Source: a virus. From it: a stretch of 64,000 bases of DNA. Where the stretch lies: positions 32,001 to 96,000 of IMG/VR virus record IMGVR_UViG_3300032214_000528, one strand, 5' to 3'. Position numbers and translations under genes: made by a program. The notes below the pieces were generated by a model, which worked only from the letters and a program-made list of their open reading frames with translations, made no database searches and was not told the DNA's origin. Positions 32,097 to 49,420 of the stretch are shown one piece after another; the stretch's first letter is position 1, and every line of letters starts with the position of its first letter.

Positions 32097-32125
32097 AAAA
32101 ACTACAAATGACGAAAGGGAAACAA

Positions 32126-34153: not shown

Positions 34154-34165
34154 GGGGCAATAAAA

Positions 34166-35224
34166 ATGGATACAATTACTAAAGACAAGTTGGCTTCTAT
34201 TGGGGGCGACTTTTGGAATATCGTTTCAGAGTGCATAGCGCAAGGTGTGCATGAGGAAACTTCACTACGACTAAATGCAAAGGTATTACCTAGTGGTCGC
34301 TTTGTTGAGCGAGCAAGTGGCGCTGATAGAAAAGCGAGAGAGCGAGCAGGTGCTATGACTCCTAGTGGAGTAGATGTTGCTTCTTTCGAGGCTGATGATT
34401 TCTATGTTCGTCCTAATGGACAAAAGTATTTCACTCGTCAATGGGGAATTCATAAGGACATAGCAGTAATTCGCAAAGCAAGAGAAGCCACCTCAAAATA
34501 TAACTCAGAAGGAATTGGCGACCCACAGTTCGTCCTTCTCTATGGCGCTCCGGGAACTGGAAAAACTGCACTCATTGAGGCTTCATTTTCTGATGAAACT
34601 TTGCATACAATTATTGGAAGTGGAGATACAGAAGTATCTGACTTCTTAGGAAGTTTCGTTCAGACACCTAGTGGAAACTTTGAGTGGATTGACGGAGAAT
34701 TCGTCAAGGCAGTAGAAAATGGTGAGCCACTTCTAATCGACGAAATTGGTTTGATTGACCCTAAAGTTCTTTCATTTGCTTATGGTGCTATGGACGGACG
34801 AAAGGAATTCACAATTCCAATGAACCCTGATAGAGGCACTATCAAAATCCACCCTGACTTTTTCGTAGTGGGTGCGACTAACCCTAACGCTCCGGGAGTT
34901 CGACTTTCAGAGGCGTTGCTATCTCGTTTCGCAATTCAGGCAGAACTAACCACAGATTGGAAACTCGCTGAGAAGTTGGGCGTTCCTAAAACTATGGTGA
35001 GCGTTGCTCAAAATCTCTACAAGAGAAGTCAGGGCGATACTGCTGAAATCTCATGGTCGCCACAGATGAGAGAGTTGCTTGCTTTCCGTTCTACTGCCGA
35101 ACTATTTGGCACAGAGTTTGCGATTGCTAACTTAATCGCCAGCGCACCTGAACTCGACAGAGATGTGGTGGTTGATGTTATTGCTCGGGCGTATGGCGCT
35201 GAGCATAAGCCAGCAAAAATCTAG
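34166..35224 (+). CDS. MoxR/CbbQ/CobS-like AAA+ ATPase
   Basis: GAPGTGKT, LLIDEIG, ATNP, ALLSRF. Confidence 0.92.
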   Translation: MDTITKDKLASIGGDFWNIVSECIAQGVHEETSLRLNAKVLPSGRFVERASGADRKARERAGAMTPSGVDVASFEADDFYVRPNGQKYFTRQWGIHKDIAVIRKAREATSKYNSEGIGDPQFVLLYGAPGTGKTALIEASFSDETLHTIIGSGDTEVSDFLGSFVQTPSGNFEWIDGEFVKAVENGEPLLIDEIGLIDPKVLSFAYGAMDGRKEFTIPMNPDRGTIKIHPDFFVVGATNPNAPGVRLSEALLSRFAIQAELTTDWKLAEKLGVPKTMVSVAQNLYKRSQGDTAEISWSPQMRELLAFRSTAELFGTEFAIANLIASAPELDRDVVVDVIARAYGAEHKPAKI

Positions 35225-35366
35225 TTCCCTGCTAGATGTTGGCTAGTGGGGTGGGGGCTTCATGGGTGTAGCCCTCACCTACCACTCAGGGGTAAAAGCG
35301 AGGGAAAGCTTTGACTCCTACGATCAAAATTCGCAGGACTCACCTAGAGGCAGATAGCCCTAGATG

Positions 35367-35395
35367 TTGCAGGTAGATAGTTAAAAGTGTATGAT
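35367..35395 (+). promoter_or_regulatory. Promoter of the VWA gene
   Basis: TTGCAG-17-TATGAT. Confidence 0.75.
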
Positions 35396-35442
35396 AAACC
35401 TATCGTTGGACACACGATACAAAAGAGAAAAGGACGAACGAC

Positions 35443-37221: not shown

Positions 37222-37287
37222 CCTAAGATAGGTTTTCTAGTCGGGTATCGTCCTTTTCAGCGTGTGTCCCCCCGATTAGGAAAAGAG

Positions 37288-37314
37288 AAGCCTCACCTAA
37301 TCGGTGGGGCTTTT
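37288..37314 (+). terminator. Intrinsic terminator
   Basis: AAGCCTCACC-TAATC-GGTGGGGCTT-TT. Confidence 0.75.
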
Positions 37315-37514
37315 CGCTTGTGGGGGTAAATTTTGATCGTAGAAGCTTTACGGCAAGTAGAGTTTTTACTTCCCGATAGCGCTTTTAATTTATTTAATTT
37401 TTGAGCGTGAGGTGCAGGAGCGGAGATAGGAAAAAATAATTCATTTTGATACTGGGTTTATTTGGATAGGTATGATAGGGTTGGGGCATAACAAGAAAAG
37501 GGAAAGGGAAAGAA

Positions 37515-37706
37515 ATGCAGATAAGAATTTTTCACGGCTTGACTTGTGAGGATTGCGATACGCAGAACTCTCTAGTCATAGACACAGGCTCGGATTGGAT
37601 AGATTGGGTTTGCCTTGATTGCCGAAACGAGTCGCACGAACTAATCCACCCTGACGACAGGGACGACATAGATTTGACCAAATTGGTCTATTCGATAGAG
37701 GGGTAA
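37515..37706 (+). CDS. Small Zn-ribbon protein
   Basis: CEDC...CLDC. Confidence 0.65.
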   Translation: MQIRIFHGLTCEDCDTQNSLVIDTGSDWIDWVCLDCRNESHELIHPDDRDDIDLTKLVYSIEG

Positions 37707-37708
37707 AA

Positions 37709-37936
37709 ATGGCGGAGATACATTATCTGATTGCATACAACACGGAAACAAAAAAGTGGGTTGCAGCGGACGAGGCTTTAGGTTCTTGGTTTAGGAACGG
37801 CCCGGTCTGGGAAGGTTCTCACGAGGACGGCAAGTGGAGATTTCTTAACTATGATGATGCTATTGAAATGGACACGGAATACGAAGCCAGCGAAACTGTC
37901 GGCAAGATACTCAAGCAACTAAATGGCGAGGGGTAA
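37709..37936 (+). CDS. Hypothetical protein
   Basis: 75 aa after AGGGGTAAAA. Confidence 0.7.
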   Translation: MAEIHYLIAYNTETKKWVAADEALGSWFRNGPVWEGSHEDGKWRFLNYDDAIEMDTEYEASETVGKILKQLNGEG

Positions 37937-37939
37937 AAA

Positions 37940-38395
37940 GTGGAAGCGGGTCTTTATGACTACTCCATTACTTATCACGGCATGAAACCGCATGATCAGC
38001 GTAGAGAGAGCGTGTTCTTTACTAACGGATTGGTTGCCACAGTAGAGATAGACGGATACGCCATAGACATTTACGCTGAGGGAAACACTCGCCTGAACTA
38101 CGCTAACGGAGATGACATTAGGATTTTTAGCACACCTGATGATTTTATTTATGGCGACTTGGAAACGGACGCAAAGCTTCAAGAGATACAAGATGACGAG
38201 GACTACTACTGGGTCAATAACAACTGGTTCGACCTCTACATAAAGGGAGAGCATTTAGATCAAGTTACCCACACCATTGACGAAGCCATTGAAAGTGCGA
38301 AGGCGATTGTCGCTGAACACATAGTCAATGTTTGCTTCATTGAAAATAACACGAAACCTATTTTGCATAAGGACGGGATTTTTGTAGAGGTATGA
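37940..38395 (+). CDS. Hypothetical acidic protein
   Basis: 151 aa, WVNNNWF. Confidence 0.7.
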   Translation: MEAGLYDYSITYHGMKPHDQRRESVFFTNGLVATVEIDGYAIDIYAEGNTRLNYANGDDIRIFSTPDDFIYGDLETDAKLQEIQDDEDYYWVNNNWFDLYIKGEHLDQVTHTIDEAIESAKAIVAEHIVNVCFIENNTKPILHKDGIFVEV

Positions 38396-38435
38396 TAGGA
38401 TAGGGTTGTAAGCAAATGACGAAGGGAAAATAAAA

Positions 38436-38927
38436 GTGCATTGTGTTCAGTTATTGTTTGTTGAGGCTGATACTCATCAAGACGCTATCGAGATAGTTGA
38501 TAGCAGACGAGAGGAAGCAGATTGGTCTGATTGGTCTGAGGTTGGTGGGCGTTGGTCAGGGATTTTTGGAGAAGGCGAACCAAACGCAATTCTTTATTCC
38601 AATGACCCTGAGAAGTGGGACAAGATGATAAAAGAGTTTTCTGATTACAGAGTGGCTCACATGAAGGAGTCATTGGCTGAAGTAGAAAAATCAGGTGAGA
38701 GTGTTGCTGAACTAATCAAGCACTACGACCCATTAGCCAATAACTTTGACTTGGGTATGAAGGGTTATTACTTGCGAAGGATTGGTTCACTACTTGCCGA
38801 TTACTGGACAAGCGATAGTGCGGTCTATGACTTAGAGGCTGGCACATCTAACTTGGCTTACTTGGCAGAGCGAACTGCAACAAACCCGAAAAAACAATTT
38901 ATGGTTGCGGTGGATTTCCACCACTAA
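38436..38927 (+). CDS. Conserved phage hypothetical protein
   Basis: MH...WSDWSEVGGRWSG...VAVDFHH pattern. Confidence 0.75.
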   Translation: MHCVQLLFVEADTHQDAIEIVDSRREEADWSDWSEVGGRWSGIFGEGEPNAILYSNDPEKWDKMIKEFSDYRVAHMKESLAEVEKSGESVAELIKHYDPLANNFDLGMKGYYLRRIGSLLADYWTSDSAVYDLEAGTSNLAYLAERTATNPKKQFMVAVDFHH

Positions 38928-38967
38928 AAATGTTATGATAGTTATCCAAATGACGAAGGGAAAGTAA

Positions 38968-39228
38968 ATGGAAAACGAAAGCGAGTTTATTACGGCTGGC
39001 GGTCTTGCCGAGTATCTCTCACAAGAGTATAAGGAAAGCGAGATTGTTTCCTACAATGTATACGGCAAGTCTGATGTTGAGTCCGACTTGGGTTGTGAGA
39101 TTACGGATGAACAATGGAAAGAGTTTATTCGGGAGTGGGAAAATGATGATGTTCTCAATGAAATTCGTGCCCAAAGTTGGATGTTGCTAATAGATAATCT
39201 TCGTCAAGAACTGGGGATTGACGAGTGA
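38968..39228 (+). CDS. Hypothetical protein
   Basis: Conserved leader. Confidence 0.7.
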   Translation: MENESEFITAGGLAEYLSQEYKESEIVSYNVYGKSDVESDLGCEITDEQWKEFIREWENDDVLNEIRAQSWMLLIDNLRQELGIDE

Positions 39229-39323
39229 GCCTTTGTGAGATTTGCGAGGCAAACGAAAAAGAGTATGCCGAAGGCAAGTGGTGCGCTTCGTGTAAAGATG
39301 ATTTCAAGGAGAGTGATGACTAA
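39225..39323 (+). CDS. CxxC microprotein (32 aa, not in ORF track)
   Basis: MSLCEICE...WCASC; GTGA/TAATG coupling on both sides. Confidence 0.6.
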   Translation: MSLCEICEANEKEYAEGKWCASCKDDFKESDD

Positions 39324-39499
39324 TGAGGCTTTGTAAGTTTTGTGGCTACGGCATACGGCTAGACAAGGCTGGCTGGTGGGTAGACCTAACGGGTGGAGAT
39401 GTGTGCGGTTGGGACGGCACGAACTCAGCTCACGAACCTAGACTTACTAGGCGAGATACGGCAGGGGTAAAAACGGATCAACGGAAGGAAGTGGCGTGA
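39323..39499 (+). CDS. Small hypothetical protein (58 aa, not in ORF track)
   Basis: MRLCKFCG...C...H; coupled on both sides. Confidence 0.55.
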   Translation: MRLCKFCGYGIRLDKAGWWVDLTGGDVCGWDGTNSAHEPRLTRRDTAGVKTDQRKEVA

Positions 39500-39732
39500 G
39501 AGTAAAAGATTTGATTGAGCAGTTGAGAGCCTATGACGGAGAGGACGAGTTGATTGTCTGCTACTGGGACAAAGAAACGGTGCATGGATACGGCTCGCCT
39601 GAAGTAACGGACGAGGAGTGGAGTGAGGTCATCGAAAGGTATAACAACGGTGAGTGGCATTTCCAAAGCTCGGCTGCCGAGGATTTTGTAGAGATAGTGC
39701 AAGAAGTGGTTTCCGAACGAATTACCGAGTAA
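39496..39732 (+). CDS. Hypothetical protein
   Basis: MRVKDLIEQL. Confidence 0.7.
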   Translation: MRVKDLIEQLRAYDGEDELIVCYWDKETVHGYGSPEVTDEEWSEVIERYNNGEWHFQSSAAEDFVEIVQEVVSERITE

Positions 39733-39790
39733 ATTATAAAAGGTATGATAGGCTTGCCTAGCAATACCAAATGACGAAAGGAACAGGGAA

Positions 39791-39934
39791 ATGGAAAAGA
39801 CAGTATGGGAGTCCTCAGTTACTGAGGAAATGATTTTTGACGCAGGTTTATCAAAGGCTGATGTAAAGCGTCTAGTAAAAGAGTTAGATGACGCAGTTAT
39901 GGAAATCTGCCAAAACTCAGGGATTGGGGGGTAA
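39791..39934 (+). CDS. Small hypothetical protein (47 aa, not in ORF track)
   Basis: Promoter, conserved leader, MEKTVWESSV. Confidence 0.65.
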   Translation: MEKTVWESSVTEEMIFDAGLSKADVKRLVKELDDAVMEICQNSGIGG

Positions 39935-39936
39935 AA

Positions 39937-40122
39937 ATGTTTTTCAATGGTTTCACTTTACTGATGATGATTATTGGGGCCGGGATCGGTTTTAGTTTTT
40001 CCCGTTGGGCTATCTCTACTCCATACCTAGTAGAAGCCCTATCTCAAAGAGTGGGATACGACTACGACAACGAGGGTCAGGTAATTATTTATACTGGACT
40101 CTACGCTGAGGCTGAAAAATAA
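39937..40122 (+). CDS. Small membrane protein
   Basis: N-terminal TM. Confidence 0.55.
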   Translation: MFFNGFTLLMMIIGAGIGFSFSRWAISTPYLVEALSQRVGYDYDNEGQVIIYTGLYAEAEK

Positions 40123-40236
40123 TTTGACGACACGCTCACCACGATTTGCACAAAGGTTATGATGAGTGTATTGTTCTACTTGTTCGGGTAAATCGCTCGG
40201 ACTTACAAAATGACTAAGAGAAAAAGGAAACGCCAA

Positions 40237-40626
40237 ATGGCTAACACCGAAGTATCATACGAAGTAGTGCAGGTAAAGGCTACAACAACAACAACAAAGA
40301 AAGCAGTAGTTTTAGATGAAACTAATGCGCTCGCACTAATCGCTAAAAAGAAACTAATCTCAGAAGCGATTGCAACACAAACTGCCGAGTTGGAAAAAAT
40401 CAAGGCAGAGATTTACGCCCTAATGGGTTGGGAAAAAGTCAAGGTCAATAAGAAAGATAAGTGGGTTGGCGAAGCAGAGGTTGGGCTTATCGCTGGCGAG
40501 GAACGAGTCAAGATTGACCTAAGGGAACGCACCGATTTTGACGGAGATGTTTTGTTCAATGACTACCGAGAGATTTACGACTTGGTGGCAAAGAAGTCAG
40601 AGTATCCCGTCCTAACCGCAAAGTAA
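40237..40626 (+). CDS. Hypothetical protein
   Basis: Own promoter (TTGCAC-17-TATTGT, 40146-40174) and terminator; start MANTEV. Confidence 0.75.
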   Translation: MANTEVSYEVVQVKATTTTTKKAVVLDETNALALIAKKKLISEAIATQTAELEKIKAEIYALMGWEKVKVNKKDKWVGEAEVGLIAGEERVKIDLRERTDFDGDVLFNDYREIYDLVAKKSEYPVLTAK

Positions 40627-40648
40627 TCTCCCTATTACTTAGCAAGAG

Positions 40649-40679
40649 AAAAGCCCTCACCGAAAGGTGGGGGTTTTTT
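40649..40679 (+). terminator. Intrinsic terminator
   Basis: GCCCTCACC-GAAA-GGTGGGGGT-TTTTT. Confidence 0.85.
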
Positions 40680-40821
40680 CTTTTGTGGCGAGGGGTAAAA
40701 AGCGAACGGCCGGGGATCAAGCTGGAGGGCCCGGAAAAAAGAATACGAGGTTCAAGAGCCCTAAATGCAGAAAGGTATGATAGGATTACCTTGTTCAGAC
40801 AAACTAGGGAAAGGCAAGACA

Positions 40822-41208
40822 ATGGACATAATGGAAAAGCACACGGTTGAATTGACTAGCGATTGCACTTGCACCAATGAGGACGGCACGCCTAGCACCG
40901 ATTGTTTTGATTGCTGGGACGACTCGGTATGGTTGTTCAAGGACTTGATGAACACTTGGCGTAAGACGGTCGGAGTAAATTGGAACACGGTTAGAATTAC
41001 TGGCCGGGGTATGGGTTGGCAACGCACTAGCGGAGAAGCCGTAGTGTCTTTCGATAAAGTGTTGGACGCACTAAAGATAAACGGGGACTTTACTTTACGG
41101 TTCAAGCAAGAGGGCTTAGTCCTTACGGCAACACGGTCAAGCCACGATGAGCCTACGGGTGCAGGGTTTTCTTTCACCCTTATCAAAGATGAAGAGGGAG
41201 AGGGGTAA
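40822..41208 (+). CDS. Hypothetical protein
   Basis: Start MDIMEK after GAAAGG; C..CFDCW, W.RTSG, SHDEPTG. Confidence 0.7.
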   Translation: MDIMEKHTVELTSDCTCTNEDGTPSTDCFDCWDDSVWLFKDLMNTWRKTVGVNWNTVRITGRGMGWQRTSGEAVVSFDKVLDALKINGDFTLRFKQEGLVLTATRSSHDEPTGAGFSFTLIKDEEGEG

Positions 41209-41211
41209 AAA

Positions 41212-41355
41212 GTGGGGAAAGATTATCTATCTATACTTATGGAGTGGAAGCCCGAGGGGGACTTTACCGAAGCTGATCTCTGGGACGCTATCGCTGAAGC
41301 CGAAGGCGTAGATGTAAGCGAGATAAGTGATAGGGACTTGACCGAGTTTATCTAG
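41212..41355 (+). CDS. Small acidic protein (not in ORF track)
   Basis: ...MEWKPEGDFTEADLWDAIAEAEGVDVSEI. Confidence 0.55.
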   Translation: MGKDYLSILMEWKPEGDFTEADLWDAIAEAEGVDVSEISDRDLTEFI

Positions 41356-41399
41356 CGGTTCGATTGTGAAAGTGCAGAAAGGTATGATAGGATAAAGGT

Positions 41400-41480
41400 A
41401 TCTCGGTGGGGGGAAGTCGCTGGTCACCTGAACGACCTGAAACCTAGGGGGTCGGAAACAATACGACTCCCCACCGAGTC
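41400..41480 (+). ncRNA. Candidate structured 5' leader/ncRNA
   Basis: Follows TTGTGA-18-TAGGAT; CTCGGTGGGG pairs with CCCCACCGAG and encloses AGTCG/CGACT and CGACC/GGTCG helices. Confidence 0.45.
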
Positions 41481-41502
41481 TATAACTAGGGAGAGGTAAA
41501 AA

Positions 41503-41622
41503 ATGAAAATAACGGACGATTATGATTACGCTAAAGATGTATGGCTAATAAAATGCGTAGAGTGTGGCGTAAGTATGAGCCGTGAAGCATACGCTTACGG
41601 ACACGATTGCGAGGTGGCGTAA
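41503..41622 (+). CDS. CxxC microprotein (39 aa, not in ORF track)
   Basis: MKITDDYDYAKDVWLIKCVECG...HDC. Confidence 0.6.
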   Translation: MKITDDYDYAKDVWLIKCVECGVSMSREAYAYGHDCEVA

Positions 41623-41888
41623 TGGGTATGAGAGGTGAGGTAGGTCGGTTTGATTTACAACAAGAAAAGATAACCGAGCTTAGATTGGCTAAGGCTAGAT
41701 TAGAGGATGCTCAAAAAGTTTTTTGGGAGTGTTTGCTAGGTTCTAGTAAAGCAGGAGTAACACACAGAGAGATTGCGGAAGCTACTGGATTTAGTCGTGC
41801 CAATGTAATGTATCACTTAAGAAAGATACAAGATAATAATCCTTTCTTTATAGGAGATGCCAATGCGAATAGGGGTAAAAAGAAATGA
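41622..41888 (+). CDS. Helix-turn-helix DNA-binding protein
   Basis: GVTHREIAEATGFSRANVMYHL. Confidence 0.8.
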   Translation: MGMRGEVGRFDLQQEKITELRLAKARLEDAQKVFWECLLGSSKAGVTHREIAEATGFSRANVMYHLRKIQDNNPFFIGDANANRGKKK

Positions 41889-42211
41889 ACGATCAAGACT
41901 CGATAAGCTGGGGAGAGCTGGCGGAATTGACTCACGCTACGCAGGTGGAACGATTTGGTTTTTGTATGTGTGAGGACAATGAAGGGAACGAAAACCCTTA
42001 TGCCGATTGTAATAAATACTACTCAACCGATTTATCTATCTCTATTGTGGAGATAAAGGCAGATAGCAAAGAACAAGCTGAAGCGATTATGCAAGAGTTT
42101 ATAGACAAGATTGCACCGATTATGGACGACAAGATTAGGTGGGACGAAGCTAACTGGGAGATTGAGGAAAGTGTCCTAGATAAGAAAGCTGGGGAGTGGA
42201 TAACAAACTAA
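41885..42211 (+). CDS. Hypothetical protein
   Basis: ISWGELAELTHATQVERFGFCMCED..PYADC. Confidence 0.65.
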   Translation: MNDQDSISWGELAELTHATQVERFGFCMCEDNEGNENPYADCNKYYSTDLSISIVEIKADSKEQAEAIMQEFIDKIAPIMDDKIRWDEANWEIEESVLDKKAGEWITN

Positions 42212-42311
42212 GACTCACCGAGGCTTGATTTGAAAATGTCAGGATAATCAAATACAATAAAGCTACTCGGTTACAGTAGCCGATTAACTAGGGAAAGAGT
42301 CAAATAAATAA

Positions 42312-42404
42312 ATGAGAACACTCCAAGAAAAACTAGATGCCGTGGCAAAAGATTTAGATGTTGTTATGGCTGATTTGTTAGATGAGCTTGGTCTAAATGA
42401 CTAA
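42312..42404 (+). CDS. Microprotein (30 aa, not in ORF track)
   Basis: MRTLQEKLDAVAKDLDVVMADLLDELGLND; sole ORF between a promoter (TTGAAA-17-TACAAT, 42230) and a terminator. Confidence 0.65.
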   Translation: MRTLQEKLDAVAKDLDVVMADLLDELGLND

Positions 42405-42416
42405 GTAGTCAGAGAG

Positions 42417-42450
42417 AAGCCCCCGCTAAAAGGCGGGGGTTTCTTTCTTT
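42417..42450 (+). terminator. Intrinsic terminator
   Basis: GCCCCCGC-TAAAAG-GCGGGGGT-TTCTTTCTTT. Confidence 0.85.
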
Positions 42451-42490
42451 ATAGGATAAACTTATAGGGGTAAAAAGAAAGGGAAAAGTT

Positions 42491-42796
42491 ATGGATCAGA
42501 TTATGGATACACGAACCGTTATGTTTATTGGAGATTATTTTTCAATGATGGTTACGGTAGGCGTTCCCGAAGAAGCGGTAAAAGAGGGCGAGATCTATGA
42601 AGATGCCTGTCTTAGAGTAGCTGGGACTTTAATGAAAGAACACTACGGCTGGGATGTTGTTGCCGTAAGTAATCACATAGGGGTTTTAGATGAGGGAGAC
42701 CCTAACTGCGAAACTTGTTATGGGGCTGGAAAGATGAAAGCCGAGGTAGCTGGTGTGGCAAGAGATGTAGAGTGCCCCGATTGTTTTAATGGTTAG
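42491..42796 (+). CDS. Hypothetical protein with C-terminal DnaJ-like CxxCxGxG
   Basis: CETCYGAG...CPDC. Confidence 0.65.
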   Translation: MDQIMDTRTVMFIGDYFSMMVTVGVPEEAVKEGEIYEDACLRVAGTLMKEHYGWDVVAVSNHIGVLDEGDPNCETCYGAGKMKAEVAGVARDVECPDCFNG

Positions 42797-42831
42797 GGGT
42801 AAAAAGTAGACTTACCGATTATGATAAGATT

Positions 42832-42940
42832 AGGTCACCGGGTCGAGCGAACTTCCCTTTCTGCTCCCCGTTGAGATAAGCACTTGTGCTTATCGCACCG
42901 CCCCTTGCTCTCCCTAGCAGGGGTGCGGTGTGTCTAATTG
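42832..42940 (+). ncRNA. Candidate three-hairpin sRNA with C-rich loops
   Basis: After TATGAT/TAAGAT -10; hairpins 42839-42870 (loop CTTCCCT), 42875-42894 and 42894-42932 (loop CTCCCT); no + strand ORF. Confidence 0.55.
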
Positions 42941-42994
42941 TAATTATTATAGAGATTAGATAAGCTAGATCTAAATCGACAAGAGGGGTAAAAA

Positions 42995-43252
42995 ATGACA
43001 AACAACACAATTCAACTCACCGAGTATTTAAATAAAGAGTGGGGACAATTAATAGGGGCAAAACTTTTAAGTATTAGAAGCGCTACCGAAGATGAAGCAG
43101 ATGAGATGATGGGCTGGGACTTTAGCAACCATCACGCTGTGCCGATTTTAGAGTTTGACAATGGGCTAAGCCTAATTCTTTCTCAAGATGAAGAAGGTAA
43201 TGGCGCAGGGTTTGCGTTTCTAGTTGAGGAAAGTCAGGAAGGTGTGTTATAG
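42995..43252 (+). CDS. Hypothetical protein
   Basis: LILSQDEEGNGAGF motif. Confidence 0.75.
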   Translation: MTNNTIQLTEYLNKEWGQLIGAKLLSIRSATEDEADEMMGWDFSNHHAVPILEFDNGLSLILSQDEEGNGAGFAFLVEESQEGVL

Positions 43253-43275
43253 TTATCCTACTCGCAGGGAGCGAG
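43224..43275 (+). promoter_or_regulatory. Promoter plus 5' AGGGA hairpin
   Basis: TTGAGG-18-TATAGT; CTCGC-AGGGA-GCGAG. Confidence 0.7.
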
Positions 43276-43290
43276 AGAAAAAGAGGGAAA

Positions 43291-43626
43291 ATGAAAACAG
43301 CCGTGAAAGTTACAACAGAGGGAACAGTCTCTGTGATTGACCTACAAGCAGACAGCAACGAGTTGGGAACTTTACAGAGTGCCGTTGGTGGTTTGATTGA
43401 GGTAGCAACTCTACAAAGTGGATACACAATGTTTATGAACGAAGAAGGAAAAATCCACGAACTTCCAATCAACGAGAAAGCCACCGCAATTTGGTTGGCT
43501 AACTTCCCTAACTTCCCTGATGTAATCTTGGGAGATGTTGTTCTAGCAGGAGCAACAGACGAAGAAGGAGAACAACTAGGGCTAGACCCCGACTACGCAC
43601 AACGCTTGGTCGAACTTCTAGCATAA
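43291..43626 (+). CDS. DUF3846-like protein
   Basis: LQSAVGGLIE, MNEEGK..LPINEKAT, ILGDVVLAG. Confidence 0.85.
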   Translation: MKTAVKVTTEGTVSVIDLQADSNELGTLQSAVGGLIEVATLQSGYTMFMNEEGKIHELPINEKATAIWLANFPNFPDVILGDVVLAGATDEEGEQLGLDPDYAQRLVELLA

Positions 43627-43637
43627 AAGTAGTAGAG

Positions 43638-43665
43638 GAACCCCTGCCGAGAGGTGGGGGTTTTT
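43638..43665 (+). terminator. Intrinsic terminator
   Basis: AACCCCTGCC-GAGA-GGTGGGGGTT-TTT. Confidence 0.85.
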
Positions 43666-43718
43666 CTATTGTATAGGGGTAAAAATCAGGGTTCACCGAT
43701 CAAGGTATCTTTAGAGGT

Positions 43719-43961
43719 ATGCAAATAGTTCAGAAGGTTTATCACCCTAACGGGAGTTCAGCTCCGTTTGTTGTGGCAATAGTTGATGACCCTGCCGAGG
43801 CAGATACTAAATTAGTTATTATGTTTGAAGAACCCGAGTGCACTGCGGTTTTCTCTTTAGATGGTCTTATTCAAGATGAAGACATTTCAGAGAAAAACTC
43901 TAGTCACGCCGAGCGTTATGAATACGCTTTGCGTGATGAGCTGTGGGATAATCGTTACTAG
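43719..43961 (+). CDS. Hypothetical protein
   Basis: YHPNGSSAPFVVAIVDD. Confidence 0.7.
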   Translation: MQIVQKVYHPNGSSAPFVVAIVDDPAEADTKLVIMFEEPECTAVFSLDGLIQDEDISEKNSSHAERYEYALRDELWDNRY

Positions 43962-43973
43962 GGGTAAAAAACT

Positions 43974-44543
43974 ATGACAACAATAGCGAGTGTTCAAGGT
44001 GATGGCTGGGCTGTTGTTGGTTATGACTCAAGAGTTACCGAGGAAGATGGCAGAACTTATACCTTGCCGAAAGAAGCAGGAAAAGTTTTTAAGAGTGGTA
44101 ATTACATAATTGGTGTTGCGGGAGATGTTAGAGCAATCAATTTAATGACTCACGTTTTTAAGGCACCGCCTTGCACAGGATCAACTTTAGGGGTAAAACT
44201 AGATAAGTTTATGACTGCGGTCTTTATCCCGGAACTAAAGAAATGTTTTGAGGAAGCCTCTTACTCAAAAGATGGCGACCAAGAAAGTCAGATTATGATT
44301 TTAATAAATGGAACTATCTACGAGATAGGCGAAGATTATTCTTGGTGCCACGACATTGCGGGTATCTATGCTATTGGTTCAGGTGCCGACTTTGCTTTAG
44401 GTGCGCTCAATGCTTTATCAGAGGGCAAGAACAGAACTCTTACTACTGCAAGAGCAACGATCAAAACTGCGCTCGCCGTCTCAGCTAAGTTCGATAATAA
44501 GACTTCCGAACCTTTTTACCTCTTGACTCAATACCGAGACTAG
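43974..44543 (+). CDS. Proteasome beta/HslV-like Ntn-hydrolase peptidase, copy 2
   Basis: M-T1TIA, D17-S-R19, GKV, AIGSG. Confidence 0.85.
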   Translation: MTTIASVQGDGWAVVGYDSRVTEEDGRTYTLPKEAGKVFKSGNYIIGVAGDVRAINLMTHVFKAPPCTGSTLGVKLDKFMTAVFIPELKKCFEEASYSKDGDQESQIMILINGTIYEIGEDYSWCHDIAGIYAIGSGADFALGALNALSEGKNRTLTTARATIKTALAVSAKFDNKTSEPFYLLTQYRD

Positions 44544-44647
44544 CAATCCCCACAAACTGCGCCATTGGTGTAGTGGTCTTGATTGATTTGGAACTTCTGC
44601 CCACACTTCCAACAGTTGATGTAAATCATTACTGCTTTTCTAGCCAT
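44540..44647 (-). CDS. CxxC microprotein (35 aa, not in ORF track)
   Basis: MARKAVMIYINCWKCG...VCGDC; own promoter (TATGAT at 44684-44679) and AAAGGGAG RBS. Confidence 0.7.
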   Translation of the reverse strand: MARKAVMIYINCWKCGQKFQINQDHYTNGAVCGDC

Positions 44648-44721
44648 TATGTTTCTCCCTTGTTTGGCTTGTAGGATTATCATAACAGATTTTCCTGACA
44701 AACTCTAAGACACGCCGAGAG

Positions 44722-44750
44722 TTGCAAAGTGCAGGAAGGTCTGTTATTAT
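44722..44750 (+). promoter_or_regulatory. Promoter with conserved spacer
   Basis: TTGCAA-AGTGCAGGAAGGTCTGT-TATTAT. Confidence 0.8.
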
Positions 44751-44776
44751 TTTCTTATAGGGAAAGGAAAACAAAA

Positions 44777-44983
44777 ATGTGGGGATTACCTGATAGCGCA
44801 ATCTTGGGAACTATCAAAAGCCTAAAGAGTCATAAGGGCGGAAGAAAAAGTAGTGCCGTATCAAAGCCAAGCAGAGAGATAACTCTTGCTCAATCTTGGG
44901 AGTGTTTTGACCAAGACTCTAGAAGCCTAGAGGAACTACTTGCTATGGCTCGCCTAACTATAAAGAAGCAACACGCCGAATAA
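44777..44983 (+). CDS. Hypothetical protein with LAQxWxxFDQDSRSLEELL motif
   Basis: Paralog motif of 5276-5467. Confidence 0.7.
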   Translation: MWGLPDSAILGTIKSLKSHKGGRKSSAVSKPSREITLAQSWECFDQDSRSLEELLAMARLTIKKQHAE

Positions 44984-44992
44984 GCAGGGAAG

Positions 44993-45045
44993 TTGCAAAG
45001 TGCAGGAAGGTCGTGTAGTATTTACTTATTGGCTAAGGGAGCCAA
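44993..45045 (+). promoter_or_regulatory. Promoter plus 5' AGGGA hairpin
   Basis: TTGCAA-AGTGCAGGAAGGTCGTG-TAGTAT; TTGGC-TAAGGGA-GCCAA. Confidence 0.8.
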
Positions 45046-45061
45046 AGAAAGCAGGGAGAAA

Positions 45062-45217
45062 ATGAAAACACAAGCAAAGTTTATTCGTCGCAGAATTGCC
45101 GTTGGAGTTATTGCGCTCGCCCTTATCGCTTGGGCGTTTGACGCTACAACACCTGAAATGTGCAAAGTTCCAACAGAGCAGATGAACCAATTCTGCCTAG
45201 ACCTGTTGTATCCATAA
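45062..45217 (+). CDS. Small membrane protein
   Basis: MKTQAKFIRRRIAVG.. TM. Confidence 0.65.
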   Translation: MKTQAKFIRRRIAVGVIALALIAWAFDATTPEMCKVPTEQMNQFCLDLLYP

Positions 45218-45229
45218 GGGGGAGAGCAA

Positions 45230-45466
45230 ATGCCTAGACTTAGAAAACCTCAACCGATTTTGTTAAATGATGATGAACTCTATGCGCTTATGCTAGCCAC
45301 ATTTAAACACCCTAAAGTTCCTAAATGGAAGCCAACAGGTTATGAACTAGGGCTACTAAAAGACGCTTACGAAAAAATTGCTACAGAGTATTACGCTCGA
45401 GCCGAAGAACAACAACGCATTGACGAGGAACTACGACTAATAAGAGCAGAATACGAGGGGGTTTAA
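45230..45466 (+). CDS. Hypothetical protein
   Basis: 78 aa with RBS. Confidence 0.6.
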   Translation: MPRLRKPQPILLNDDELYALMLATFKHPKVPKWKPTGYELGLLKDAYEKIATEYYARAEEQQRIDEELRLIRAEYEGV

Positions 45467-45468
45467 GT

Positions 45469-45675
45469 ATGAGCGAAGAAGGTTCAGAGTCATACAACAA
45501 AGCAAAACAAAGATGGGGTAAGGGAGAAGAACTTACAGACCAAGAGTTCGCCTGTCTTTTAATGAGGTCTTGCGGAGTCTCTAATTTAGTTGGGGCTTTA
45601 GGTTATGGACACGCTAACGAGTGCGGTTTTTGTGATGGGTCTAAACAAGTAGACCCTAGAAGTTATAGGGGGTAA
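45469..45675 (+). CDS. Hypothetical protein
   Basis: 68 aa, CGFC. Confidence 0.55.
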   Translation: MSEEGSESYNKAKQRWGKGEELTDQEFACLLMRSCGVSNLVGALGYGHANECGFCDGSKQVDPRSYRG

Positions 45676-45679
45676 AAAG

Positions 45680-45871
45680 ATGATGTTTGATCTTGGCTTT
45701 GGGCTACCGACTTATTTAGCTCATCTAACTATTGGGGTTGGTCGCTACACCCTTTGGCTCAACATTGTGGCTACTAACTGGAGAACCTTTCACTTTGGCA
45801 AAAGGTGGGGCGACTGGGTTGGTTGTTTCTCTGTCTTTACTTTTGCTTACACTATAAAAGAGAGGGGGTAA
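45680..45871 (+). CDS. Hypothetical aromatic-rich protein
   Basis: 63 aa between two AGGGGGTAAAAA motifs. Confidence 0.5.
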   Translation: MMFDLGFGLPTYLAHLTIGVGRYTLWLNIVATNWRTFHFGKRWGDWVGCFSVFTFAYTIKERG

Positions 45872-45873
45872 AA

Positions 45874-46050
45874 ATGTATTTAGATACGGGAACCTTGTTT
45901 GCAATAGTGATTGCGCTCGCTGGCTCATGCTTTGTTATGGTAGTTGGTATCAGAGCGCAGGGTCAGTTGCACCGAGTCATTAACCAAAAGAACGAGAAGA
46001 TCAGATTTCTCCAAGCCGAACTACTAAAAGAAAAGAGAGTAACTCAATAG
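45874..46050 (+). CDS. Small membrane/coiled-coil protein
   Basis: MYLDTGTLFAIVIALAG.. Confidence 0.65.
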   Translation: MYLDTGTLFAIVIALAGSCFVMVVGIRAQGQLHRVINQKNEKIRFLQAELLKEKRVTQ

Positions 46051-46244
46051 TGAAGATTGAAAAGATTACAGATGAGGCAGTTCGCCTTTACGAAGGTGGG
46101 CTATCTCTAGAGGCAGTAGCCAAAGAACTAGGCGTTGCCTACCGAACCGCAAGAAAGGCTGTCTACGGGGCTGGAGTGGTCGTTAGAGACCCCTCTAATC
46201 GTTTAGTGGGCAGAACTAGACCTGATAAGAGAGTGAGCGCATGA
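46050..46244 (+). CDS. Helix-turn-helix protein
   Basis: LYEGGLSLEAVAKELGVAYRTAR. Confidence 0.8.
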   Translation: MKIEKITDEAVRLYEGGLSLEAVAKELGVAYRTARKAVYGAGVVVRDPSNRLVGRTRPDKRVSA

Positions 46245-46396
46245 ATACCAACAACATAGTTTGGACAGCAGTCGTATCCCTAGCCCTTGGCTTGGCTTGC
46301 CTTGTGGCAGGTTATCAAGGTAATGACTCAATGGCGCTCGCCTTTGGGTTAACCTCAGTAGCCTCAGCAACTCTATCTGCTAGAGAGAAGCGATAA
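46241..46396 (+). CDS. Small two-TM protein (51 aa, not in ORF track)
   Basis: MNTNNIVWTAVVSLALGLACLVAG.. Confidence 0.6.
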   Translation: MNTNNIVWTAVVSLALGLACLVAGYQGNDSMALAFGLTSVASATLSAREKR

Positions 46397-46415
46397 AGCT
46401 TTAAGGCTTTCTAAG

Positions 46416-46454
46416 TGCGGGAAGGTAGGAAAAACCTGCCTTCCTGCATTTTTT
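46416..46454 (+). terminator. Intrinsic terminator
   Basis: TGCGGGAAGGTAGG-AAAAA-CCTGCCTTCCTGCA-TTTTTT. Confidence 0.8.
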
Positions 46455-46711
46455 ATGGAGCATTTAGGTTTTATTATAGATTTAAGGCTGTCAGCAGGGG
46501 ATTTACGCTTAGAGTGTGAAATAAACCTCAATCTGATAGGCTAAAAAAGTGTCGGATTAACCTGACATTGCGGTATAGTTTATCCAAGCAAGACAAGTGA
46601 CATAAGGAGATCTACGGATTAGACACTTGAAGTAAGGCTGTCCCCAAGAGCGGGGTGGCAAGGCTGTTAACACTTATAGCCTGTCCCTGTCCCCTAACAA
46701 AGGAAAACCAA

Positions 46712-47284
46712 ATGAAGCAATCTCTAAAGCAACGCCATTTGCAGGAGTTGATAGCACTAATGTCTTTGACAGTAGTTCTAGCCTCTACCGCAGTAGCAGT
46801 AGCGCAGAGTCCAGAGCAAATGGAACCAGTTCAACAAGTTGTAGTAGTTCCAGAAGTAGTAGAAGTAAAACCGAAGCTTTCAGACTTTGAGAACAAAACC
46901 TCTCTCACCGATACAGAATTGAGAGATCTTCTCATTGCAGTTGGCTTTGAAGGCAAAGCCCTTCGCATTGCGTGGGCTATTGCAAAGAAGGAGTCCAATG
47001 GTCGCCCGCTTGCTTTCAATGGCAACGCAAAAACAGGCGATAGTTCCTACGGTGTCTATCAAATCAACATGATTGGTGACTTAGGCCCGGATCGAAGAAT
47101 TAAGTTTTCACTTGATTCAAACTCAGACCTTTTCAATCCAGTAATCAACGCTCAAATTGCTCACCACATGAGCAAGGGTGGAGAAGATTTTTCCGCATGG
47201 AAGATCTCCAAGAGCGACTATAATAGTGCTACGGCGGAACCTAAGTTTCAAATGTGGCTTAAGAAGTTCCCCGAAGGAAAGTAG
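46712..47284 (+). CDS. Secreted lytic transglycosylase (SLT/lysozyme-like)
   Basis: Signal peptide; AIAKKES catalytic Glu, SYGVYQIN, LFNPVINA, FSAW. Confidence 0.85.
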   Translation: MKQSLKQRHLQELIALMSLTVVLASTAVAVAQSPEQMEPVQQVVVVPEVVEVKPKLSDFENKTSLTDTELRDLLIAVGFEGKALRIAWAIAKKESNGRPLAFNGNAKTGDSSYGVYQINMIGDLGPDRRIKFSLDSNSDLFNPVINAQIAHHMSKGGEDFSAWKISKSDYNSATAEPKFQMWLKKFPEGK

Positions 47285-47289
47285 GAAAC

Positions 47290-47712
47290 ATGAGCGAAGA
47301 ACTCAGACCCCTAGTAGGTTCAATAGTTCCGCCTGTGGTGACACCTGCGGAAGAGCCAAAGCCAACCCCTGCGCTCGCAGTTGAGCCAAAGGTTGAAGAG
47401 GTCAAAGAAGTAAAGAAGGAAATCAAGTCAGCCCCAAAGGTTAAGAGAGATGCCAACACAATTATTTCTCTTTCTGCTTTGAAGGTTGGTGCTATGGCTG
47501 GTAACTCTTCTTCTGTTCAGACTGTTCAGTTGCGTCTTAAAGACCTAGGTTTTGACGCAGTTGTTCGAGATAAGTTTGGCAGACTAGGAGAAGGAAGTGT
47601 TGAAGCGATCAACGCTTACCGAAAGTCAGTAGGCTTAGAAGAGTGCGGTTGCTTTAATGAAGAAGTTCTCGCTTATCTCTTTGACGGTCTAGATGTAGGA
47701 GTTGGAGCGTAG
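47290..47712 (+). CDS. Peptidoglycan-binding-like domain protein
   Basis: VQTVQLRLKDLGF...G.LGEGSVEAINAYRK. Confidence 0.6.
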   Translation: MSEELRPLVGSIVPPVVTPAEEPKPTPALAVEPKVEEVKEVKKEIKSAPKVKRDANTIISLSALKVGAMAGNSSSVQTVQLRLKDLGFDAVVRDKFGRLGEGSVEAINAYRKSVGLEECGCFNEEVLAYLFDGLDVGVGA

Positions 47713-47820
47713 TAGCTACCTTTCCAATTTCTATCAGCGCCCAGTTGCTCAAGTAAAATTGAGAGGCTGGGCGTTGGTATTTCTAGCGCCTAAGTGCGGG
47801 ACATTGAAAGGACAGCACTC

Positions 47821-48102
47821 ATGGCAGTAATCAAGAAAGAAAAGAACAAGCAGTTCGAGAAAACTAAGATGATTGTTTCAAGAGTCATTGCGGTTTTCGC
47901 TGCGTCAGGATTATCAGTAGTCGGTGCTGGCTCTATTGTCGGTATTGAACTAACTCAAGCAGTAACCCTTGCGGGTGCTCTTGGTGTTGCTACTGTCTTG
48001 GAAGCGTTGGCTCGTGCCTACCTTGCAGACGGAAAATTAACTACTGCCGAAATCGATCAAGCCTTTGCTTTGGTTGATAAGGGTAGAAGTTCTTCTTCTT
48101 AA
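47821..48102 (+). CDS. Holin-like membrane protein
   Basis: Two hydrophobic segments, DGKLTTAEIDQAF. Confidence 0.55.
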   Translation: MAVIKKEKNKQFEKTKMIVSRVIAVFAASGLSVVGAGSIVGIELTQAVTLAGALGVATVLEALARAYLADGKLTTAEIDQAFALVDKGRSSSS

Positions 48103-48117
48103 TTCTGAAAAGCAAAG

Positions 48118-48153
48118 AACCCCCCAACCTTTGCGGTTGAGGGGTTTTTTGTT
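48118..48153. terminator. Terminator between convergent genes
   Basis: CCCCCAACC-TTTGC-GGTTGAGGGG-TTTTTT. Confidence 0.75.
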
Positions 48154-48161
48154 TGACGGAT

Positions 48162-48302
48162 TTACTTAGAGTTCTTTAGTTCTGTTAGCCACATTTCTAG
48201 AAGTTCAGCCCTTGCGGTGTTGCCTTCCGATAGTGCCTCTAGAAGTTGTTTTGTTATTTGTTCAATTGTTCTGTCGTTGATCAGTTGTGAAGTTGAAGCC
48301 AT
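48162..48302 (-). CDS. Small hypothetical protein
   Basis: MASTSQLIND.. after AGGGA RBS. Confidence 0.6.
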   Translation of the reverse strand: MASTSQLINDRTIEQITKQLLEALSEGNTARAELLEMWLTELKNSK

Positions 48303-48395
48303 TTCCCTACTTCCTTTCTTGTTCGATTGGGTCTTGAAGTAATGCAATTGCAGTTCCTAGAACCCCTGCGATTATTGCTACGGTTGCTATTAACA

Positions 48396-48518
48396 TTATG
48401 CCCCCAAAATAAAACATAGAGCGATTGCAACTGCTACACCAACAAAAGCGCCAATAGGTGCGCCAACATCAGCGTTTTCATCAAGCCAGTCAATTACTGC
48501 GGTGAATGGATTTGTCAT
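48396..48518 (-). CDS. Small membrane protein (40 aa)
   Basis: MTNPFTAVIDWLDE..; own promoter and hairpin leader. Confidence 0.7.
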   Translation of the reverse strand: MTNPFTAVIDWLDENADVGAPIGAFVGVAVAIALCFILGA

Positions 48519-48533
48519 TTTGTTTCTCCCTTT

Positions 48534-48587
48534 TGGTTCTCCCTGAACCATTGATAAAACTATAAACCTTCTTCCTGACATTTGCAA
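48534..48587 (-). promoter_or_regulatory. Promoter plus 5' AGGGA hairpin
   Basis: TTGCAA-ATGTCAGGAAGAAGGTT-TATAGT; TGGTTC-AGGGA-GAACCA. Confidence 0.8.
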
Positions 48588-48646
48588 GAGACACGCCCAA
48601 CAAAAAACCCCCCGATTTCTCGAGGGGTTCTTCGGGGAGTTGGTCA

Positions 48647-48913
48647 TTAAACCTCTGTAGCCCTGCCGTCCTCAACTTGCTTGAGGAAGTCTTGAACTAT
48701 CTCTAGTGCGTCCTTTCGTCCTTGAAGTCCTCTGAACTTTGGAAGTCCGATTTGATCTCCGATAAGTCTTGCAAAAGTGCGGAGAGCAGGTTCTGAAGTC
48801 ATTTGCATTTTACTTCCGCCGTATGTCTTGATTTCAAGTTCTAGTGACATTTTGATTAGTTCAAGTTGGATAGGGCTAACTGCTAACTCTACGGTCATTG
48901 GTGATGTTGTCAT
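48647..48913 (-). CDS. Hypothetical protein
   Basis: Own promoter, leader and terminator (48601-48630). Confidence 0.75.
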   Translation of the reverse strand: MTTSPMTVELAVSPIQLELIKMSLELEIKTYGGSKMQMTSEPALRTFARLIGDQIGLPKFRGLQGRKDALEIVQDFLKQVEDGRATEV

Positions 48914-48935
48914 TTTGTTTCTCCCTTTTGTTTTT

Positions 48936-48990
48936 CGGTTCTCCCTGAACCGTTAGGAAAAGAATACATGACCTTCCTGACATTTGTCAA
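48936..48990 (-). promoter_or_regulatory. Promoter plus 5' AGGGA hairpin
   Basis: TTGACA-AATGTCAGGAAGGTCATG-TATTCT; CGGTTC-AGGGA-GAACCG. Confidence 0.85.
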
Positions 48991-49023
48991 GATAAGATCA
49001 AAAAGCTTTTACGGCGTGTCGGG

Positions 49024-49063
49024 AAAAGAAAAACCCCCCCGAGGGAAGTCAGGGGGGTTAGTT
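49024..49063 (-). terminator. Intrinsic terminator with CTTCCCT loop
   Basis: CCCCCCTG-ACTTCCCT-CGGGGGGG-TTTTTCTTTT on the minus strand. Confidence 0.8.
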
Positions 49064-49071
49064 CTTTGCGG

Positions 49072-49344
49072 TTACTTGGTAAGGAGAAGTTCCAAGATTT
49101 CGCCGTCAGTAAGTTCTTTGTAACTACCGTTGAAAGGACTTGTGTAAGAACCTTTATTCTCATCTGTTACGGCAACCTTTACAACTTCTGCATTCATTCC
49201 CTTTGCATTCTTTGCGGTTTCAGTAATCAGGCTACTTGCACCTTGTGCGGTATCAACATGGAAGTTGTAGTTTGTTTCCTTTGTGATTGTTCCTGTTGAT
49301 GTTGTCTCTGAATACTTTACTGTGATTGATACTCCGTATGACAT
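49072..49344 (-). CDS. Hypothetical protein
   Basis: Start MSYGVS after AAAGGGAG. Confidence 0.75.
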   Translation of the reverse strand: MSYGVSITVKYSETTSTGTITKETNYNFHVDTAQGASSLITETAKNAKGMNAEVVKVAVTDENKGSYTSPFNGSYKELTDGEILELLLTK

Positions 49345-49364
49345 TTGTTTCTCCCTTTGTTTGT

Positions 49365-49420
49365 ATTGGAACTCCCTGCTCCAATAAGATAAAGATACAT
49401 GACCTTCCTGCACTTTGCAA
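49365..49420 (-). promoter_or_regulatory. Promoter plus 5' AGGGA hairpin
   Basis: TTGCAA-AGTGCAGGAAGGTCATG-TATCTT; ATTGGAGC-AGGGA-GTTCCAAT. Confidence 0.85.

Follow-up and report, generated by a model that had tools for sequence, protein, structure and literature searches.

The stretch of DNA analysed here (the window, 64,000 nt) comes from the complete 135-kb genome of an uncultured freshwater phage and carries five conserved promoters, each followed by a short hairpin that would form the 5' end of the transcript, as a first-pass annotation had reported. The promoters are of the sigma-70 type (-35 TTGCAA or TTGACA, a spacer with CAGGAAGG, -10 TAnnnT), with a predicted +1 at an A that lies 7 nt past the -10 and 0-2 nt ahead of the stem. 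On the plus strand, promoter P1 (43224..43253; -35 43224-43229, CAGGAAGG spacer, -10 43248-43253; predicted +1 43260) precedes hairpin 1 (43261..43275; 5-bp stem, AGGGA loop), which leads a DUF3846 gene (43291-43626; Shine-Dalgarno sequence (SD) AGGGA at 43284-43288). Promoter P2 (44993..45021; -35 44993-44998, -10 45016-45021; predicted +1 45028) precedes hairpin 2 (45029..45045), which is present as reported but is more aptly described as an AAGGG pentaloop on a 6-bp stem, with U-A as the closing pair; it leads a 51-aa, membrane-like ORF (45062-45217) followed by an operon up to 46396. The other three lie on the minus strand. Promoter P3 (48559..48587; -35 48587-48582, -10 48564-48559; predicted +1 48552) and hairpin 3 (48534..48550; 6 bp, AGGGA) lead a 40-aa ORF (48518-48396); P4 (48961..48990; -35 48990-48985, -10 48966-48961; predicted +1 48954) and hairpin 4 (48936..48952; 6 bp, AGGGA) lead an 88-aa gene (48913-48647). 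Finally, P5 (49392..49420; -35 49420-49415, -10 49397-49392; predicted +1 49385) is followed by hairpin 5 (49365..49385; 8 bp with one G.U, AGGGA), which begins at the predicted +1 and leads a 90-aa gene (49344-49072). Intrinsic terminators follow each small hairpin-led gene, every such cassette has its own promoter, and three of the five copies lie within tandem, near-identical promoter-gene-terminator cassettes.

The leaders share one layout: the hairpin, an A-rich spacer, then an unpaired ribosome-binding site of the AAGGGAG type, the separate true SD that had been described downstream of each hairpin. RNAfold predicted the 5' hairpin as the sole structure of all five leaders (-6.9 to -8.9 kcal/mol), with the downstream SD left open. 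Judged by promoter geometry and predicted start sites, the stem of all five copies, like that of the relatives, starts 6-8 nt past the -10, at about +1 to +3. Two features had not been considered in the first-pass annotation: the loop with its closing G (AGGGAG) is identical to the hexamer of the genes' own SD, and the position of the hairpin fits +1 to +3, the classical place of a 5' mRNA stabiliser. A genome-wide search, one of the checks proposed earlier, found eight stems of 5 bp or more that close an AGGGA or AAGGG pentaloop, where first-order Markov simulations gave 3.6 +/- 1.9; the excess is wholly promoter-linked, five of the hairpins being those at the promoters above. Copies of the same promoter at 41365+, 44722+ and 44690- have no such hairpin.

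Three WhiB genes in the phage genome suggest that the host is probably an actinobacterium. Megablast against GenBank phages gave no match to this phage, and its RNR matched phage contigs that had been binned with MAGs from across many phyla, from which the host could not be inferred.

We searched IMG/VR and metagenome data for promoter-linked hairpins in relatives and retrieved 26 distinct hairpins with a pentaloop, on 17 different stems. Their inner stem pairs are canonical without exception (130/130), compared with a mean of 51% and a maximum of 63% in shuffles; the stems vary with pairing preserved in relatives as well. The set contains 21 G.U pairs, on the mRNA (sense) strand only. From canonical pairing far above that of shuffles and sense-only G.U pairs, we conclude that the 5' hairpin is a selected RNA structure, as judged by comparative sequence analysis. 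The reading as a double-stranded DNA operator was rejected, since the half-sites vary around a constant centre and the G.U pairs are confined to one strand. Among orthologous leaders the stem has turned over completely by compensatory changes; in the relative G002, a wholly different 8-bp stem stands in front of the 40-aa gene. The loop, thought to be invariant, is so in this genome alone; among relatives AGGGA and AAGGG alternate, with AGGG as the common core, and the loop is occasionally replaced. Two gene lineages retain the hairpin at the same place with AGGG gone, the loop being AAACG at the 90-aa gene and 11 nt long at the DUF3846 gene; at least part of the function thus does not need the AGGG loop. 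These leaders are best explained as conserved modules of early transcripts made by the host polymerase, whose stems drift with compensating changes and whose pentaloops retain AGGG, and the covariation across relatives strengthens the earlier proposal of a regulon tag on early mRNAs. A metagenome scan added close relatives only and no new variants of the loops of the small RNA described next.

A candidate reader of the tag, a small RNA with three hairpins, lies on the plus strand (42822..42941), with an extended -10 (TG 42822-42823, TAAGAT 42825-42830). Its +1 is predicted near 42837 and the structured element spans 42837-42935; the minimum free energy is -50.2 kcal/mol on the plus strand (z -5.8) versus -45.1 on the minus strand. 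In relatives, invariant G.U pairs, six compensatory pairs and a conserved extended -10 argue that this C-rich small RNA is a real, conserved plus-strand element. Rfam searches at gathering and permissive thresholds matched neither the small RNA nor the 5' hairpins to any family, 6C included. The loop of HP1 is CUUCCCUUUCU and that of HP3 is CUCCCU; the apical UUCCCUU and CUCCCU complement the AGGG tag exactly, in that AGGGA(G) of loops and SDs matches CUCCCU and AAGGG matches CCCUU in HP1. Conservation and complementarity make it plausible that this RNA reads the tag; no loop-to-loop covariation between small RNA and 5' hairpins was found among the retrieved relatives, because the loops of the small RNA do not vary (HP3 CUCCCU is unchanged in 17/17 copies seen, and loops containing UCCCU are invariant). 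Small RNA and hairpins co-occur within one clade only, so that their co-occurrence is not independent evidence.

SD usage also bears on the small RNA. All AGGG loops and most early SDs use GGG, which pairs with UCCCU by Watson-Crick pairs and needs a wobble against 16S CCUCC, whereas in this phage the late and structural genes have the canonical GGAGG or AGGAG. GGG-type and canonical SDs stand at 27:15 in the early region versus 26:55 elsewhere (p=0.001). In addition, leaders whose hairpin loop has no AGGG carry UAGGGAG (7/7, versus 5/32), in two gene lineages only; this sequence would lengthen the complementarity to the HP3 loop, a hint of a link between leader and small RNA. When duplex energies of the small RNA loops and of the anti-SD were compared across all start regions, early genes did not stand apart from the rest.

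We tentatively favour, at somewhat less than an even chance, a protective stem-loop at the 5' terminus, with its AGGG loop and the ribosome-binding site both targeted by the phage's three-hairpin small RNA. The stem at the extreme 5' end would shield the message from 5'-end-dependent decay of the RNase E/J and RppH type, while the exposed loop and the ribosome-binding site would form a two-site target; by kissing at the hairpin and pairing at the ribosome-binding site, the small RNA would be able to tune or shut off the gene set. Such a layout has parallels. S. aureus RNAIII acting on rot and coa, the UCCC-loop small RNAs RsaE and LhrC and the actinobacterial 6C/B11 have several apical C-rich loops and contact each target mRNA twice, through G-rich motifs in a hairpin loop and at the SD (PMC2837412, PMC4132741, PMC6486639). 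In RNAIII-coa, SD pairing and loop-loop contact occur together (PMC2837412), and the C-rich loops of 6C act without a chaperone (PMC6486639). The present RNA differs from RNAIII and 6C in being phage-encoded, with the phage's own early genes as predicted targets and the predicted hairpin target at the extreme 5' end. The small RNA is a plausible reader of the tag. Against it, a 5-nt loop leaves little room for a full kissing helix, and AGGGA and AAGGG also complement the canonical 16S anti-SD with one G.U. A more specific version, which we consider possible at a lower likelihood, is an RNA-only timing switch: on accumulation, the UCCCU small RNA would clamp both the 5' AGGG hairpin and the AAGGGAG SD, silencing or destabilising the early set, and the stems could drift freely, the loop alone being read.

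The main rival to reading by the small RNA, which we hold to be rather unlikely, is an SD-mimic stabiliser or standby site: the loop would be bound by the 3' end of 16S rRNA, so that a parked 30S subunit blocks 5'-end-dependent nucleases or feeds the true SD nearby. The identity of the loop hexamer with the genes' own SD and the position at the predicted +1 to +3 speak for it, as does pairing: AGGGAG and AAGGGG each pair at six positions, with one wobble, with the anti-SD 3'-UUCCUC-5', which is assumed to be canonical for the host from general knowledge and was not read. No start codon lies at SD distance downstream of the motif in the loop. Precedents are the STAB-SD of cryIIIA and the aprE leader, the latter combining a 5' stem-loop with ribosome binding (Agaisse and Lereclus 1996, Hambraeus 2002, via PMC3997798; also PMC5737220). 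The E. coli ompA and papA and B. subtilis aprE leaders and the STAB-SD and SP82 polypurine stabilisers likewise have a hairpin a few nt from the 5' end and SD-like purines upstream of the real SD; the phage module differs in that the SD-like motif lies within the loop of the terminal hairpin, in that it is repeated over a set of early transcripts with freely variable stems and in that the motif avoids the optimal anti-SD complement. Indeed, the optimal GGAGG, AGGAG or AAGGA occurs in 0/26 loops, although late genes of the phage use such SDs, and only 5 nt are exposed, the sixth being paired, which may hinder 30S binding.

Reading of the loop by a protein, be it a CsrA-type regulator of the host, an RNA-binding repressor of the phage or an endoribonuclease like RegB that cuts early GGAG, appears improbable. 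The leaders do have the CsrA two-site layout, AGGGA in the loop and a second GGA in the SD, as in CsrA/RsmA sites with GGA in a short hairpin loop and another at the SD. CsrA, which the first-pass annotation had offered as a possible reader, is absent from the complete phage genome by Pfam search (PF02599), and GGA, the defining CsrA contact, is present in the AGGGA loops of this window and is not conserved in those of relatives, where orthologous hairpins often have C-AAGGG-G loops containing neither GGA nor GGAG; CsrA as the reader is accordingly not supported. The search for CsrA proposed at that stage gave a different outcome on the host side: the protein occurs in 36/151 sampled genomes of the class to which one Actinomycetota MAG belongs (a tally that includes the unpublished G020, G043 and G049), which favours a host regulator and contradicts the argument that Actinobacteria lack CsrA, which was dropped. 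The targets of T4 RegB resemble the leaders in their early-gene-specific GGAG followed by an A-rich tract, and the best protein-only RegB substrate leaves GGA unpaired while its fourth G is constrained (PMC3014915). The phage differs in having no RegB homologue in its complete genome by Pfam search (PF10715) and AAGGG-G loops without GGAG. As to a phage repressor, a Pfam scan of 20 small early proteins found an RNA-binding domain in none, and an AlphaFold model (pLDDT 71) of the 90-aa protein encoded behind hairpin 5 does not resemble CsrA and matched nothing significantly in the PDB; the model of the 88-aa protein was too poor for a structure search. Moreover, GGG changes register inside the loop, as would be expected of base pairing more than of a protein site recognised by shape.

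It is also quite doubtful that the hairpin is a purely cis-acting 5' cap, in which the stem alone counts, the likeness of the loops stems from duplicated leader cassettes or a folding preference, and nothing acts in trans. The AAACG and 11-nt loops kept in place in relatives, and the three copies in tandem cassettes, agree with such a cap. Against it, stems have fully turned over (17 versions) yet AGGG is kept, the opposite of what neutral descent predicts, and to our knowledge neither AGGGA nor AAGGG is among the known stable pentaloops. Pairing of the 5' loop with a 3'-UTR or terminator loop was rejected as a general mechanism because the CUUCCCUC loop is limited to the terminator of the 90-aa gene in this phage and one relative. 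Lastly, antitermination of the nut/boxB kind, with an N-like phage protein on the nascent hairpin driving polymerase through the terminators between cassettes, is highly improbable: the 5-6 bp stem, the purine pentaloop directly past early promoters and the intrinsic terminator ending each small gene recall it, but AGGGA and AAGGG are not GNRA-like, unlike the boxB loops GAAAA or GAAGA, the flanks are A-rich, no boxA-like element lies beside the hairpins, and with a promoter in front of every cassette there is no need for read-through.

Little is known of post-transcriptional control in actinobacteria and their phages; we know of no Hfq and of few characterised small RNAs in these bacteria. 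A whole promoter class with one loop on unrelated stems, together with a conserved small RNA bearing complementary loops, offers a compact, testable system. It bears on 5'-terminal mRNA protection in organisms with RNase E/J and on whether an SD-like loop can recruit ribosomes or a small RNA, and its leaders are portable parts for expression in actinobacteria. If the timing switch is true, the phage would turn off its early genes without a protein repressor.

Five predicted transcripts of this phage begin, as the first-pass annotation had described, with a small hairpin: at 43261-43275 (+), ahead of a DUF3846 gene; at 45029-45045 (+), ahead of a 51-aa ORF; and at 48534-48550 (-), 48936-48952 (-) and 49365-49385 (-), ahead of a 40-aa ORF, an 88-aa gene and a 90-aa gene, respectively. 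Upstream of each lies one copy of a promoter family (-35 TTGCAA/TTGACA, -10 TAnnnT) whose conserved spacer includes CAGGAAGG, found 11 times in the window for 2.4 expected. The seventh base past the -10 is an A after a pyrimidine in 5/5 promoters, and the hairpin stem starts 0, 1 or 2 nt past the predicted +1 A. When each leader was folded from this predicted +1 up to its start codon, the 5' hairpin was the sole structure (-6.9 to -8.9 kcal/mol) and the ribosome-binding site (SD) remained free of pairing, in agreement with the claim that a true SD, separate from the loop, lies downstream. The genome as a whole has 8 hairpins whose stem is 5 bp or longer and whose pentaloop is AGGGA or AAGGG, against 3.6 ± 1.9 in first-order Markov simulations; five are promoter-linked and the other three correspond to the background level. 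Promoter copies lie at 41365 (+), 43224, 44690 (-), 44722 (+), 44993, 48587 (-), 48990 (-) and 49420 (-), and at loci L041, L052, L056, L060, L024 and L039; those at 41365, 44722 and 44690 have no 5' hairpin. The transcript of the 41365 promoter starts with a conserved structured leader (41394-41480 (+), L092, L148, L258; GGGGGAAGUCGCUGG... ACCUGAACG) that precedes a small ORF and an HTH gene and is kept in distant clade members.

Searches with the promoter word and with two early proteins (90 and 88 aa), together with a scan of metagenomes, retrieved dozens of related contigs; two of these records are complete or nearly so. The clade contributes 26 distinct pentaloop hairpins linked to the promoter, with 17 different inner 5-bp stems. 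Their inner pairs are canonical in 130/130 cases, whereas 2000 shuffles averaged 51% and never exceeded 63%; five pair types occur at each of pair positions 2-5, and 21 pairs are G.U on the mRNA-sense strand, which would read as A.C mismatches on the opposite strand. Orthologous leaders have undergone complete compensatory turnover of their stems: that of the DUF3846 gene is CTCGC/GCGAG in this phage and CCAGC/GCTGG in relative G001, the 40-aa-gene leader has a 6-bp GGTTC-type stem here versus an unrelated 8-bp stem in relative G002, and the 90-aa-gene leader exists in at least six stem versions. Stems therefore do differ while pairing is kept, as first proposed. Although the 26 rows are non-independent (about six leader positions, a handful of lineages), this covariation marks a selected RNA hairpin rather than a DNA operator.

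The loop, initially held to be invariant, varies around an AGGG core. It is either AGGGA with a C-G closing pair or AAGGG with a C-G or U-A closing pair, the latter type including the window's second hairpin; orthologous hairpins alternate between the two, and AGGG is still present in some larger loops. In two gene lineages the hairpin is kept in place with an unrelated loop (AAACG for the 90-aa gene, 11 nt for the DUF3846 gene). Given this switching and these unrelated loops, the conserved core is AGGG within a small loop at the predicted 5' end, the stem-loop itself being the more persistent feature. In a wider phage family, the same promoter and a GAAGGGAAAC ribosome-binding site accompany short, unstructured leaders. 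The promoter spacer GTGCAGGAAGGTC is common to a much wider IMG/VR phage set, whose promoters have TTGACA as -35 and whose leaders are short, lack the hairpin and end in GAAGGGAAACAAAATG. TGTCAGGA-N8-TAnnnT resembles the mycobacterial RecA-NDp/PafBC motif.

The C-rich small RNA (sRNA) suggested as reader of the loops (42822-42941, +) is a real conserved element of three hairpins. Its own extended -10 promoter is conserved on the + strand, its minimum free energy is -50.2 kcal/mol on that strand (z -5.8) vs -45.1 on the other, and it contains G.U pairs that never change as well as six compensatory pairs. A covariance model locates it in ten more contigs, and every clade member retrieved retains it with compensatory changes; it has no Rfam family. 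Its UCCCU-type loops show no variation among the copies retrieved: the hairpin 3 (HP3) loop, CUCCCU, is perfectly Watson-Crick complementary to AGGGAG, and the hairpin 1 (HP1) loop includes UUCCCUU, complementary to AAGGGAA as well as to AAGGG. Comparison of duplex energies (sRNA loops versus anti-SD) was uninformative. UAGGGAG, which lengthens complementarity into the HP3 closing pair, occurs in 7/7 leaders whose hairpin has lost AGGG, from two gene lineages only, vs 5/32 others, weakly hinting at a link with the sRNA.

The sRNA promoter belongs to a second, extended -10 class (GGTATGATAGG-like; 31770-31801, 37480-37514, 38940-38967, 39760-39790, 40790-40821, 42820-42830) with short AAAUGACGAAAGGGAAAC-type leaders and no 5' hairpin; GAAAGGGAA is a 9-nt complement of the HP1 loop. 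Weak covariance-model matches to the sRNA (22-23 bits) at G007:59647-59732 and G009:7068-7153 (L150, L151), with loops UCUCUC and UCUACCUU, come from the hairpin-less wider family, some of whose SDs are AGAGAGG. Immediately behind the stop codon of the 88-aa gene and ahead of the gene's terminator (48630-48646 (-), same place in L121-L137), CUCCC(U/C), the same word as the HP3 loop, is kept in all relatives and could pair with AGGG sites of its own message. The 90-aa-gene terminator (49020-49066 (-)) has a 12-nt loop with CUUCCCUC in this phage and G001 only, and unrelated loops in other relatives.

The phage genome is complete (135,031 bp, direct terminal repeats, 43% GC), and the window covers its bases 32001-96000. 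Among its products are a portal protein, a ribonucleotide reductase (RNR), CobT/CobS-like proteins and an HslV-like protease. The phage carries three WhiB genes, a family that matched Corynebacterium alone among 14 control genomes. Among named phages it is closest to DSL-LC01, an Actinomycetia phage assembled from a metagenome (47% amino-acid identity over one protein), which its authors likewise term an actinobacteriophage (PMC10611076). A freshwater actinobacterium is therefore the probable host. Close RNR homologues (L244-L252) lie on contigs binned to metagenome-assembled genomes (MAGs) from many phyla (Chitinophagaceae, Bifidobacterium, Gammaproteobacteria, Saccharimonadia, Luteolibacter), probably mis-binned phage contigs. 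Actinobacteria possess RNase E and RNase J.

The leaders combine a hairpin at a set position relative to the promoter, an AGGG loop and a free SD, and the genome provides a complementary sRNA. We tentatively favour a mechanism in which the 5'-terminal stem would shield the 5' end against 5'-end-dependent decay while the sRNA would contact loop and SD together. This double contact resembles RNAIII-coa, where SD pairing is joined to loop-loop contact (PMC2837412), and the C-rich loops resemble those of 6C, which act without a chaperone (PMC6486639). A stabiliser read by the ribosome, of the STAB-SD or aprE type (references in PMC3997798; PMC5737220), fits an SD-like loop and is the nearest competitor, credible if clearly less probable: AGGGAG (loop plus closing G) is identical to the SD hexamer of the hairpin-led genes, and both loop types pair with the canonical anti-SD over six positions, one G.U allowed. 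However, 0/26 loops contain the optimal GGAGG or AGGAG, which this phage does use for its late and replication genes. GGG-type and canonical sites stand at 27:15 in the early region and at 26:55 outside it (p=0.001, based on rough gene calls). With a UCCCU partner being matched, and not CCUCC, one would expect just this consistent choice of GGG over GGAGG, at loops and early SDs alike. Site class AGGGGTAAAAA occurs on many + strand early and middle genes (28067-45873), late genes having GGAGG or AGGAG.

Reading of the loop by a protein is improbable, and by CsrA itself, also initially considered, far more so: the complete phage genome, when searched, lacked CsrA and C-AAGGG-G loops contain no GGA, although a host CsrA is possible on taxonomy (CsrA occurs in 36/151 sampled genomes of the class to which an Actinomycetota MAG belongs, counting unpublished genomes G020, G043 and G049; 33/148 excluding them). 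The C-AGGGA-G geometry recalls the RegB target, though no RegB homologue was found in the phage genome; a Pfam scan of 20 small early proteins showed no RNA-binding domain, and the 90-aa protein model gave no informative fold match. A 5' cap acting only in cis is about as improbable as a protein reader, and a nut-like site is very improbable.

Both 5' stabiliser hairpins and UCCC-loop sRNAs hitting SDs and hairpin loops are already known kinds. No description of the present arrangement was found in the literature searched or in Rfam. New are the SD-like motif in the loop of a terminal hairpin, the repetition of this hairpin as a tag across a phage promoter class while its stems drift freely and the presence, in one genome with it, of a phage sRNA that carries the exact complement of the loop.
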